A stretch of 64,000 nt of DNA, taken from NCBI RefSeq assembly GCF_054482525.1, contig NZ_CM137006.1; one strand, written 5' to 3'. Below are positions 49,901 through 52,900 of the stretch, piece by piece. The position numbers are program-made. Each line of letters begins with the position of its first letter. The stretch's first letter is position 1.

Positions 49901-52900
49901 GCTTTGCTTCGCTGCTGCCTGGCTGCAAGACGTTCAGACTCCGGTAAGCCCCGTATTTCATCCTCAATGGCGTACAGTTCACTGATGCGCTTCAGAGCTT
50001 CTTCTGCCGTCGTACTTTTGCTGCTGATGTATACATCGTGGATTTTTCGCCGGGCATGGGCCCAGCACGCAACTTCTGTCAGTGCACCACCTTCACGTTC
50101 GGCACTGAACAGCCGATCGTAACCGCTGAATGCATCCGCCTGCAGGATACCCCGGAAGGGACGAAGGTGTTGTACCGGATGTTTTCCCTGCCTGTCTGGT
50201 GAGTAGGCGAACCAGACCGCCGGTGGCTCTGATGAGCCCGCATTCCGGTCATCCCGGACATACGTCCAGATGCGTCCTGTTTTTGCCTTTTTTCTGCCCG
50301 GTGCCAGCACTTTTACTGGTATGTCGTCAGTGTGAACCTTGCGGGTGTTCATCACGTAACGGTACAGGGCATCATTCAGCGGAGTCATTAACTGGCAGCA
50401 CGCGTCAACCCAGTTGGAGAGTAATGCACGGCTCAGTTCGGCACCCTGTCGGGCAAAGATTTCACTCTGACGATACAGTGGCAGGTGTTCGCAGTATTGT
50501 CCCGTTAACACGCGGGCAAGTAATCCGGAGCCCGCGATGCCGCGCTCTATCGGGCGGGACGGCGCTGGCGCTTCAACTATACAGTCACATTTTGTACAGG
50601 CTTTTTTTACCCGAACAGTGCGGATCACTTTCAGGGCGCTACTCACCAGTTCCAGCTGCTCAGCACTGACTTCACCCAGATAATCCAGCTCACTGCCACA
50701 CTCCGGGCAACAACTTTCTTCAGGCTCCAGGCGGTGTATTTCACGGGGAAGATGTGCTGGTAACGGACGACGATGACGTGACTGTCGCAACTGGCGGGGA
50801 ACCTGCGGGTCATCCTCACGCCCACTGTAACGATCGCTTTCCTGTTCGCGTTGTTTCAGTTGGGCCTCAGCCTGTTCAACCTCACGCTGCAGTTTTTCAG
50901 AACGGGTACCGAACAGCATCCGGCGCAGTTTTTCTATCTGGGCCCTCAGATGTTCTGTTTCCCGCTCCTCCTCTTCGATCTTTTCTTCGGCACGTGCCAG
51001 TGCAGAGCGCAGGAAGGCCTCCGTCTCTTCAACCAGACTCAGTTGCTGATCTTTCTGACGGAGGGCTTCAGCCTGCTCAGAGAGTAGCCTTTCCAGCTCA
51101 GTGATACGAATGAGGTATTTCCGACTCATGACCGTTTTTATAATCCGGCCATGACATTTTTACAACATTGTCAGTGCATTAAGGCGGGATGTTTTGGGTT
51201 GACGCCAGTCCAGTTTATCGAGGAGCATTGCCAGCTGCGAGCGGGTAATGGATACCTTACCGTCACGCACCGCAGGCCAGATAAACTGGCCTTCCTCCAG
51301 ACGTTTGGTGAACAGGCACAGACCATCAGCATCAGCCCACAGGATTTTAATCGTGTCACCCCGTCGGCCGCGAAAGATAAACAGGTGACCGGAGAAGGGG
51401 TTCTCATCCAGCACATGTTGTACCTGTTCACCCAGACCGTTGAAGGATTTACGCATATCAGTAACGCCGGCAACCAGCCAGATTCGAGTGTCTGATGGGA
51501 GCGAGATCATCGTCCTCTCCCGGTCAGTTCACGGATCAACACCGTGAGCAGCTCTGGTGAAGGATTTTCCAGCGTCATGTTACCGTGGCGGAACTCAACT
51601 TTACAGGAACTGGCACTGACTGTGCTTTGTGAAGGAGTGGATAAAAGCGGAGTAAGAGCCGCCATAGGCTCTTTCTGCTCATCAGGCGTTATCTCAACAG
51701 GTAATAATTCAACGCCAGCGCCAGAAGAGGTTGTTACCGGAAGACGCCGCGATATACGCCCTTCGTTCTGCCAGAGCCTGAGCCATTTGAACTGGAGGTT
51801 ATCATTGATATCGTGTTCCCTGGCAATACGGGCAACAGAGGCTCCTGGTTGTGAAGCCAGTTTAACCATTTGAAGTTTAAACTCATTTGAAAATGTTCTG
51901 CGGGGTTCTGCGGGGTTCTGCGGATAATATTTTCTGTTCCATAACAGGTGTCCACTAGTTGAAAAAGTGGGCACCTACGTTACCAATACTGGCTTAATGG
52001 CTACATACGGCGGTCAGTTTACGCTTACAGAAATGTAATGAAGACGTCCTACCATTAACTGAAGAGCATGGTGACGGATGAAGGAAAAAGCAGGAGTGTG
52101 TGGTGCCTCACAGATTTCCGACATCATAGCTGTCAACGACGGATGAAAAGCGGCTCTTCCGCAACTTGGGTGGAAGAAAATGGATGAAACTTTCTGGTGT
52201 GAGAACCTTAAGGAAACAACATGTTGGGTGGAGCGGACAATCCAAATGGTGAATTACCGTCTTATATCACTGGCGCTGACATTCCGGGCGTCTTCTCCGC
52301 CACAACGCCATTTGCAGTGCATCACAGGCCAGTTGTGCTTTCATTCGCAGTGACATCGACCAGCCAATAACGGCGCGTGACCACAGGTCGATGACTACTG
52401 CGAGATACAACCAGCCCTCATCGGTACGCAAGTACGTGATGTCACCCGCCCACTTCTGGTTCGGGCCGCTGGCGCTGAAGTCCTGCTCCAGCAGATTCTC
52501 CAATACGGGCAGGCCATGTGCACGGTAGCTGACTGGGCTGAACTTCCGGCTGGCTTTCGCCCGCAGCCCCTGACGACGCAGGCTGGCGGCAATGGTTTTA
52601 ATATTGAACTCCGGCAGTTCGTCAGCAAGGCGGGGAGCACCGTATCGCTGCTTTGCCTCAAAGAATGCCTTATGGACAGCGGCATCGCAGGTGAGCCGAA
52701 ACTGTTGGCGCAGGCTCATCTGGTGACGACGCCTGAGCCAGACATACCAGCCGCTGCGGGCAACCCGAAGTACACGACACATCGCTTTGATGCTGAACTC
52801 TGCCCGATGATTTTCGATGAAGACATACTTCATTTCAGGCGCTTCGCGAAGTATGTCGCGGCCTTTTGGAGGATGGCCAGTTCCTCAGCCTGCTCCGCCA

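Follow-up and report, generated by a model that had tools for sequence, protein, structure and literature searches.

Simple-sequence contingency loci, such as the CTCTT repeats of Neisseria opa and the tetranucleotide repeats of Haemophilus, undergo phase variation by slipped-strand mispairing and typically carry 6 to more than 40 units. VNTR markers serve in the MLVA typing of E. coli, and the transposases of the IS1 and IS3 families use programmed ribosomal frameshifting. The IS66 family, whose tnpA-tnpB-tnpC elements go back to work by Han et al. (2001) and Gourbeyre et al. (2010), both cited through PMC6778807 and PMC3469429, is described in PMC3469429 as using translational coupling and not programmed frameshifting.

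The tract analyzed here lies in a stretch of 64,000 nucleotides from contig NZ_CM137006.1 (assembly GCF_054482525.1), which as a whole we call the window, and it resembles each of these systems in part. Like a contingency locus, it has a non-triplet unit just past a start codon, is polymorphic and recurrently changed, and occurs in both in-frame and out-of-frame states; it differs in having only 1–5 copies of a long 10-bp unit and no selectable phenotype attached, in being uniform across assemblies of one strain, and in varying even in copies that are otherwise dead. By a rough estimate, its rate of change is far below that of classical phase variation. Like the MLVA VNTRs, it is a short tandem array that varies in copy number among closely related strains while staying constant inside a clone, although it sits in a mobile element of an accessory island, has few alleles, and is found in a small minority of complete genomes. 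As in IS1 and IS3 frameshifting, changes of reading frame would set the amount of a transposition protein, but the change here is a DNA length mutation; inspection of positions 51880–51945 gave no A6G-type motif, and neither a slippery heptamer nor a pair of overlapping ORFs that could be fused is present.

An IS682-like element beside cnf1

The tract belongs to an IS682-like element of the IS66 family that occupies positions 48030–52028 and adjoins the toxin gene cnf1 in an hly-cnf1 island of uropathogenic E. coli, where it would have been fixed long ago. GI-pheU of ST131 virotype E is already known to have the arrangement hlyCABD-cnf1-HTH fragment-ISEc16-IS682 (PMC8386418). An 8-bp target duplication, AGAAATGT, flanks the element at 48022–48029 and 52029–52036, and the terminal inverted repeats start with GTAAGCG, the left repeat (GTAAGCGTAAACTGACCGCCGTATGTAGCC..., 51990–52028, minus strand) ending at 52028 and the right repeat (GTAAGCGTCAACAGAGCGCCGTAT on the plus strand) starting at 48030. 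Alignments to other copies of the element in E. coli genomes end at window positions 52028–52033. The three ORFs of the family are all present on the minus strand: the tnpA reading frame with its HTH domain at 51507–51974 (HTH_Tnp_1, 4.6e-13, residues 25–73), an intact and annotated tnpB encoding an IS66 Orf2-like accessory protein of 116 aa at 51160–51510 (TnpB_IS66, 7.8e-37), and the 5′ part of tnpC, the DDE transposase gene, at 49704–51129, with DDE, leucine zipper, and zinc finger domains (Pfam: DDE_Tnp_IS66, 1.2e-90; LZ_Tnp_IS66, 3.4e-13; zf-IS66, 4.6e-12). The stop of tnpA and the start of tnpB overlap in an ATGA. A 3′ remnant of tnpC together with the right inverted repeat lies at 48030–48248 on the minus strand.

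Between the two parts of tnpC, ISEc45 (IS110 family) occupies 48249–49703 on the plus strand and corresponds to a 1455-bp gap relative to an uninterrupted element; blastn against the uninterrupted copy of Combat2C1 places the break at 49703/49704. The annotation describes tnpC as "missing C-terminus," and ABU 83972, UTI89, and Es_ST80 likewise have an IS110-like ISEc45 family transposase annotated at this position. The ISEc45 insertion alone has already made the copy in the window dead, and the canonical tnpA frame in addition stops after 19 codons, so that the element is neither intact nor competent for transposition. It shares with the IS682/ISEc23 group the three ORFs and their family domains, the GTAAGCG... 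repeats, the 8-bp duplication, and the ATGA overlap, and it is ~97% identical to copies named IS682 (96.6–96.8% over the first 529–534 bp of copies whose tnpC PGAP calls "IS66-like element IS682 family," the name being that of PGAP). In carrying an additional 10-bp unit in tnpA and ISEc45 in tnpC it departs from that group, a fossil rather than an active element. An Rfam scan of 47000–54000 matched no family, which suggests that no known RNA element is involved. A promoter and terminator scan of 51700–52200 returned one weak promoter-like site within the coding start and one G-T-rich "terminator" that is the repeat itself, neither of them above the shuffle expectation.

The repeat tract and the tnpA reading frame

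Tandem Repeats Finder called a perfect 10-bp repeat of 2.9 copies at 51895–51923 (period 10, 100% matches, 0 indels) with the consensus GTTCTGCGGG. This is the same array, offset by one base, that the original prediction had given as about 2.8 copies of ttctgcgggg at 51896–51923. The tract is unique in the window; a search of the 64 kb with the 19-mer GTTCTGCGGGGTTCTGCGG, allowing up to 3 mismatches, returned two overlapping matches in the tract only, against a chance expectation of 0.00 matches from 100 dinucleotide-preserving shuffles. The coding (minus) strand reads CCGCAGAACC CCGCAGAACC CCGCAGAAC and spans codons 8–17 of tnpA, numbered from the canonical ATG. The array had been predicted to lie in the tnpA of an IS66-family element and to shift its frame with each unit gained or lost, and both points agree with what we found, since the tract is at the 5′ end of the ORF that matches HTH_Tnp_1, its unit of 10 bp is not a multiple of three, and the ATG-started frame of the 3-unit allele (51883–51942, minus strand) runs from ATG 51942 for 19 codons (MEQKILSAEPRRTPQNIFK) to a TGA at 51885–51883.

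The relatives of the element have a shorter tract. The two-unit length, with the same ATG-started N terminus, is found in IS682 (RM10410), two ISEc23 copies, and a relative on an APEC plasmid; the CFT073 copy also has the two-unit length and the conserved ATG, and reference-type copies encode an ATG-started TnpA of 141 aa from 2 units. The N-terminal sequence ME....EPR(R/K).(F/Y)SNEFKL and its ATG are conserved in IS682, ISEc23, and one further relative. In distant family members the stretch is not repetitive, suggesting that the two-unit length is ancestral in the IS682-like lineage. Two perfect units (CCGCAGAACC CCGCAGAAC, encoding S-A-E-P-R-R-T) are the usual state of the lineage, which makes TnpA from the conserved ATG, and the window holds the +1 unit allele. 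Given the length and the conserved ATG of the relatives, the third unit is a +10 frameshift.

In the window's allele the conserved ATG no longer leads into the HTH frame, which in the 3-unit allele opens only from GTG 51974 (155 aa) and contains no ATG start. Each allele has some upstream start (ATG 51942, GTG 51974, or GTG 51955) in frame with the HTH domain, and in ABU 83972 PGAP starts tnpA at CTG 51947 (146 aa, WP_050576101.1). Because only GTG and CTG codons without a Shine-Dalgarno sequence stay in frame upstream, TnpA is probably lost or strongly reduced, and TnpB would follow it if the two are translationally coupled, as is reported for the expression of IS66-family ORFs in PMC3469429, which summarizes Han et al. 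2001. In the window itself the state of the tnpA frame is without consequence, the element having already been killed by ISEc45 in tnpC.

We considered whether the extra unit might leave the gene functional, with TnpA translated from the in-frame GTG 51974 (or the CTG 51947 of PGAP) and merely carrying a longer, altered N-terminal tail, so that the 3-unit form would be a viable variant of the IS. The 155-aa ORF is open across the entire HTH domain, PGAP calls an intact TnpA, and there are 3-unit elements of full length whose tnpB and tnpC are intact (Combat2C1, 2543 bp). However, inspection of the sequence before GTG 51974 and GTG 51955 revealed no recognizable Shine-Dalgarno sequence, the ATG and the N terminus are conserved across IS682 and ISEc23, and the CTG and ATC starts chosen by PGAP are homology-driven rescues rather than evidence of expression. 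We consider a viable GTG-started variant unlikely, and its bearing on the distribution of the 3-unit allele is taken up below.

Unit numbers at the cnf1 junction and elsewhere

A short allele-specific megablast without an E-value limit joined matches in two pieces and so mixed alleles, and it was replaced by allele-specific queries with strict E-value limits against 5,426 complete E. coli genomes. The cnf1 junction is present in 244 of these (~4.5%), with 2 units in ~58, 3 units in 168, and 4 units in 18; an evenly spaced sample of 60 junction rows gave 14:41:5 for 2, 3, and 4 units. Across the complete genomes as a whole, 2 units occur at 814 places in 776 genomes and 3 units at 174 places in 169 genomes, 173 of these places (168 genomes) being at the cnf1 junction. 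The 18 records with 4 units are all chromosomal, and the locus is adjacent to cnf1 in 6 of 6 that were fetched (UTI89, AHB19, NCTC9022, GN05064, UPEC_U013, and FDAARGOS_1297, the last by a match to the junction query). A single unit was found at 31 places, all plasmid remnants, and 5 units in none of the 5,426 genomes. Metagenome contigs gave the same spectrum plus one in-frame 5-unit allele at the cnf1 junction (contig L046). PLSDB plasmids yielded no 3-unit allele and only partial matches of the 2-unit type. The unit number thus differs among IS66 copies, with 1, 2, 3, 4, and 5 all seen, and the 2 units of the reference-type copies set them apart from the window, so that there is no uniform number accompanied everywhere by an intact tnpA. 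The tract is not described in the literature retrieved by searches on IS682 and on slipped-strand repeats in transposases.

An assembly artifact was rejected as the source of the third unit, which is present at the cnf1 junction in 168 independent complete genomes and 6 metagenome contigs; the 4 units in the Sanger-era genome of UTI89 and in 14 other records also speak against it. A case of apparent transposition of a 3-unit copy (SCAID WND1-2021, 5 places in one genome) was likewise rejected as segmental duplication or misassembly, since the two copies in the 40-kb stretch that we examined have their ISEc16 fragment and their cnf1 flank in common.

At the cnf1 locus most copies carry the out-of-frame 3-unit allele, which is also found in metagenome contigs at three other junctions (L032/L068, L022, and L042/L051), a distribution that runs counter to a simple loss of function; 3-unit elements could still transpose or be tolerated. 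The other junctions are compatible with transposition of a 3-unit donor and to that extent favor the GTG-started variant, but those contigs end inside the IS, short of any target duplication, a 2-unit copy could have supplied TnpA in trans, and SCAID WND1, the multi-copy complete genome examined, represents segmental duplication and not transposition.

Repeated change, probable slippage, and the question of a switch

SNPs were compared over 3.25 kb of flanking sequence between loci of different unit number. There is no flank SNP between the window (3 units) and NCTC9022 (4 units), between ABU 83972 (3 units) and AHB19 (4 units), or between UTI89 (4 units) and contig L045 (3 units), and there is a single SNP between UTI89 and AVS0750 (2 units) and between the window and SCU-101, GABEEC132, or E02 (2 units). 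The loci form two haplogroups ~38 SNPs apart, within each of which 2, 3, and 4 units occur. As identical flanks and both haplogroups carry different unit numbers, the tract has changed repeatedly, in the way expected of slipped-strand mispairing, and it has in common with phase-variable loci that the differences recur between near-identical strains. On the flank tree with its 23 tips, parsimony required 10 or more changes, compared with a mean of 11.1 when unit numbers were shuffled, a rough count given that the sample was deliberately enriched for rare alleles and that the tree within a haplogroup comprises 0–7 SNPs. A conservative minimum is 4–5 events.

Replication slippage, or unequal exchange between units, would add or remove whole 10-bp units in place. 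Different unit numbers might also reach the same flanks through gene conversion or recombination involving separate IS682-like copies or islands, and in many of these genomes a further copy, with 2 units, is present at the CFT073-type locus. Two contigs, L042 and L051, have 3 units at that locus with SNPs that are CFT073-like on one side and like the cnf1 copy on the other, resembling a conversion patch. A 2-unit donor, however, cannot yield 4 or 5 units. The nearest flanking SNPs of the cnf1-locus alleles (51793 and 52040, ~100 bp from the tract) all keep the state of their haplogroup whatever the unit number, so that any conversion patch would be confined to less than 250 bp, and the diagnostic 3-bp insertion of the CFT073 copy, 40 bp from the tract, is absent from the 2-unit cnf1-locus copies examined. 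We regard conversion as highly improbable here and slippage as the probable mechanism.

We also asked whether the variation could serve the element as an on/off device, in which 2 or 5 units give an ATG-started TnpA and 1, 3, or 4 units silence TnpA and the coupled TnpB until a later slip revives them. The position of a non-triplet unit directly past the start codon is that of classical contingency genes, the changes are recurrent and run in both directions on near-identical flanks, DA61218, GN02350, and AVS0750 have at the cnf1 locus a 2-unit allele whose tnpA, tnpB, and tnpC are all intact, and an in-frame 5-unit allele is known from contig L046. Set against this, an array of 2–3 units offers slippage little substrate and should slip at a low rate, and the two independent assemblies of strain 83972 both have 3 units. 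Clonal isolate series (AVS02xx, p4A/p11A/p11B) have 3 units throughout, and the four records of UTI89 all have 4, although their identical length indicates that they possibly represent one assembly. Outside the cnf1 locus the two-unit tract hardly changes, with ~756 two-unit places in complete genomes against at most one 3-unit place. Variation is equal in copies that cannot transpose; those whose tnpC is split by ISEc45 are dead in any tnpA frame, yet they have 2 units in SCU-101, 3 in the window and ABU 83972, and 4 in AHB19, NCTC9022, and UTI89. Neither host nor element gains any evident selective benefit, and the OFF state holds in most copies at the locus. An on/off device of this kind is very unlikely. 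If the IS lineage did keep a reversible dormancy switch, to which we give only a slight chance, the element could lie harmless in the island for a long time without losing the ability to start fresh transpositions, past revivals would have left the 3-unit copies seen at other junctions, and the switch would be a new way of self-regulation for an insertion sequence.

Taken together, these data favor a small VNTR within the first 17 codons of tnpA, a length polymorphism prone to slippage that is probably neutral noise in a decaying IS and not a device, a reading to which we assign a probability of roughly 0.8. The original prediction had offered a slipped-strand switch or an inactivating duplication. 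Of the former, slippage is supported by the recurrent change on identical flanking haplotypes, but the function of a switch is not, given the variation in dead ISEc45-interrupted copies, the agreement of the 83972 assemblies, and the lack of any phenotype that could be attached. The latter comes closer, except that the duplication is recurrent rather than a single fixed event and that inactivation is probable rather than observed, the upstream GTG-started ORF being open.

The tract is of little weight for biology at large. As an inexpensive marker it can tell apart hly-cnf1 islands that do not otherwise differ, with 4 units in UTI89, NU14, and UM146, 3 in ABU 83972, and 2 in SCU-101. Through its choice of CTG and ATC starts the NCBI pipeline masks tnpA frameshifts and so inflates the number of IS66-family elements counted as "intact" in UPEC islands. 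The tract also provides a natural example of a perfect two-unit duplication that becomes much more mutable on reaching three units.

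A 10-bp array in the tnpA of a defective IS682-like element

Tandem Repeats Finder (TRF) returned a perfect array at 51895-51923 with a period of 10, 2.9 copies and the consensus GTTCTGCGGG, which confirms the 10-bp tandem repeat noted inside an IS66 tnpA. Even at 3 mismatches, the two-unit 19-mer has no other site in the 64 kb, and shuffled sequence is not expected to contain it; the array is therefore a genuine feature and not a product of chance. On the coding strand the array reads CCGCAGAACC CCGCAGAACC CCGCAGAAC and starts 19 bases past the ATG at 51942. Directly adjoining it is an imperfect 17-bp repeat (TRF; 51859..51891, 2.1 copies, AGTTTAAACTCATTTGA) within the conserved coding stretch SNEFKLQMVKL, without length variation in the aligned copies.

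The host element extends from 48030 to 52028, with GTAAGCG... inverted repeats at its ends and an 8-bp target duplication (AGAAATGT) at both flanks. Its minus-strand genes are tnpA (51507-51974; Pfam HTH_Tnp_1, 4.6e-13), tnpB (51160-51510; TnpB_IS66, 7.8e-37) and a truncated tnpC ORF (49561-51129; DDE_Tnp_IS66, 1.2e-90, with IS66 leucine-zipper and zinc-finger domains). Since the 1455-bp ISEc45 (IS110 family; 48249-49703) lies inside tnpC, this copy is unable to make its transposase. The transposase of close full-length relatives is named 'IS66-like element IS682 family' by the NCBI pipeline (PGAP), and the element, which agrees with the group in every structural feature tested, is a defective member of the IS682 group of the IS66 family. 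The gene order, hlyCABD, cnf1 (54049-57093), an HTH-gene fragment, an ISEc16 fragment, the IS682-like element, a TetR gene and a fimbrial operon, is that of the hly-cnf1 island known from uropathogenic E. coli; an earlier description of the IS682/ISEc16/cnf1 arrangement exists for GI-pheU of ST131 (PMC8386418).

Reading frame of tnpA

The two-unit length is found in IS682 (RM10410), the CFT073 copy, two ISEc23 copies and a more distant plasmid relative, all of which start TnpA at this ATG and conserve the N-terminus ME....EPR(R/K).(F/Y)SNEFKL. As the corresponding tnpA stretch of distant family members is non-repetitive, this shared length and common start indicate that two units are ancestral and that the allele in the window has gained 10 bp. 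The expectation that unit gain or loss shifts the frame is borne out, because in the 3-unit allele the frame from ATG 51942 encodes MEQKILSAEPRRTPQNIFK and then stops, and the HTH-domain frame is open only from a GTG at 51974 (155 aa). PGAP places the tnpA start at CTG 51947 in 3-unit alleles and at ATC in 4-unit alleles (L001 4008..4448 and L006 3633..4061, equivalent to window 51507..51947), and so lists the frameshifted genes as intact (WP_050576101.1, 146 aa, 3 units; WP_032142953.1, 142 aa, 4 units). These starts are homology-driven rescues and no evidence of expression.

Inspection by eye revealed no Shine-Dalgarno sequence ahead of the alternative GTGs. Each allele has some start codon in the HTH-domain frame, so residual TnpA could possibly be made from the out-of-frame alleles. 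IS66-family ORFs are translationally coupled according to the summary of Han et al. 2001 in PMC3469429, and the tnpA stop overlaps the tnpB start in the window element, from which we infer that the 1-, 3- and 4-unit alleles would make little TnpA and less TnpB.

Unit number across E. coli

Allele-specific searches of 5,426 complete E. coli genomes with strict E-value limits yielded one unit in 31 places (29 genomes, plasmids only), two in 814 (776 genomes, 45 places on plasmids), three in 174 (169 genomes), four in 18 (18 records, all chromosomal and cnf1-adjacent in 6/6 loci examined) and five in none. All but one of the 3-unit places (173, in 168 genomes) lie at the cnf1 junction, the insertion site of the element beside cnf1. 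A query spanning the IS end and flank places this junction in 244 genomes, and with 168 of these carrying three units the locus divides into about 58 / 168 / 18 genomes with 2 / 3 / 4 units; in 60 rows sampled at even spacing the ratio was 14 : 41 : 5. A pattern scan of metagenome contigs detected two units in 43, three in 11, four in one and five in one, the last (L046) at the cnf1 junction, in frame and adding 10 amino acids. Comparison with other IS66 copies thus reveals repeat numbers from 1 to 5 units.

One 1-unit (-10 bp) allele, on the cq9 plasmid (NZ_CP031548.1, 3123..3581), belongs to a truncated IS remnant that lies about 700 bp from the heat-stable (STa) enterotoxin gene sta1, its tnpA a pseudogene according to PGAP. 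At the cnf1 junction, a two-unit sub-lineage that includes DA61218 and GN02350 has a G-to-A change inside the repeat (equivalent to window 51912), leaving the two units imperfect; it comprises about 28 genomes, as estimated from the 60-row sample, with tnpA, tnpB and tnpC intact. Greater stability would be expected of imperfect units, and the SNP was not seen in any expanded allele.

Metagenome contigs carry 3-unit copies at three further junctions (L032/L068, L022 and L042/L051). Transposition of 3-unit elements, independent expansion or gene conversion could each account for them. L042 and L051 have three units at the CFT073-type site, a different chromosomal site of a related IS where 37 other contigs have two. 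Their SNPs are mosaic, CFT073-like on one side of the tract and, on the other, cnf1-copy-like without the CFT073 3-bp insertion, which has the appearance of a short patch of gene conversion between the two IS copies. The L032/L068 and L022 flanks are TATTGTACAGAG and CCATTCATAAAT; these contigs end within the IS, which in L022 is clearly diverged in distal tnpA. Five 3-unit places occur on the chromosome of SCAID WND1-2021 (NZ_CP082831.1). In the 40-kb stretch examined, two copies, each with an ISEc16 fragment and partial cnf1, lie amid duplicated and inverted flanking segments with many frameshifted genes. The copies come with duplicated cnf1 segments, so we rejected new insertions as their origin; the repetition reflects a large-scale amplification or, alternatively, an error of assembly. 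Two contigs (L069, L070), one assigned to a Segatella copri MAG and the other to a Bacillota MAG, match the left end of the E. coli IS exactly and continue into the CFT073-type chromosomal flank CATGTATCTGGC, most likely through binning contamination.

Recurrent length change and the proposed switch

We fetched 17 genome loci and compared 16 over flanks of 3.25-5.7 kb, excluding strain 1105 because its tnpA is interrupted by other ISs and adding metagenome contigs of sufficient length. The flanks form two SNP haplogroups, A and B, about 38 differences apart, with 2-, 3- and 4-unit alleles in both, and the SNPs closest to the tract (51793 and 52040) retain the haplogroup state. No flank SNP separates the window (3 units) from NCTC9022 (4), ABU 83972 (3) from AHB19 (4), which have a 33-bp tnpC deletion in common, or UTI89 (4) from contig L045 (3); a single one separates UTI89 from AVS0750 (2) and the window from SCU-101, GABEEC132 or E02 (2). 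A neighbour-joining tree of the 23 flanks requires 10 or more changes of unit number, hardly fewer than when the numbers are randomly reassigned among the tips (mean 11.1, range 7-13), the sample being enriched for rare alleles and the tree poorly resolved inside haplogroups. Cautiously read, these sequences require at least four to five independent changes. Mutability of the tract is about that of several hundred to a few thousand ordinary sites combined, which with typical E. coli substitution rates gives, very roughly, 1e-6 per generation, apparently much faster than base substitution yet much slower than classical phase variation.

The ISEc45 insertion is present at all haplogroup-A loci examined and in UTI89 and GN05064 of haplogroup B; Combat2C1, CUVET17 and AVS0750, also of haplogroup B, are without it. 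This distribution implies either repeated site-specific insertion at the same target or recombination between islands. The 33-bp tnpC stretch (50195..50227), retained in the window and UTI89 and deleted in ABU 83972, SCU-101 and AHB19, gives a second structural marker, one that splits haplogroup A.

The original prediction held as to frameshifting and copy-number variation, given the allele counts and the stop in the ATG frame, but a functional switch found no support. A switch for dormancy and revival of the IS is very improbable, because copies killed by ISEc45, the window's and many others, vary equally (SCU-101 with 2 units; the window and ABU 83972 with 3; AHB19, NCTC9022 and UTI89 with 4), so that the variation is independent of any function. 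Outside the cnf1 locus, complete genomes hold about 756 two-unit places against at most one 3-unit place, so two units are evidently quite stable. Independent assemblies of strain 83972 agree in unit number, as do clonal isolate series, and the only affected products are the IS's own proteins; cnf1 lies 2 kb away, upstream on the same strand. The pattern is consistent with a single rare expansion from two units to three, after which slips from three to two and from three to four came more easily.

Identity as a programmed-frameshift site was rejected. In its behaviour the tract resembles a small VNTR. It shares its layout with contingency loci, but the window's copy lacks their selectable output, and whereas high-frequency switching defines such loci, the tract is known here from assembled sequences. 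No description of it was found in the searchable literature. We read it as a new case of something well known, slipped-strand length mutation in an insertion sequence undergoing decay. The non-canonical PGAP starts mask the tnpA frameshift in RefSeq, and the practical bearing of the tract, on annotation and strain typing, is modest.
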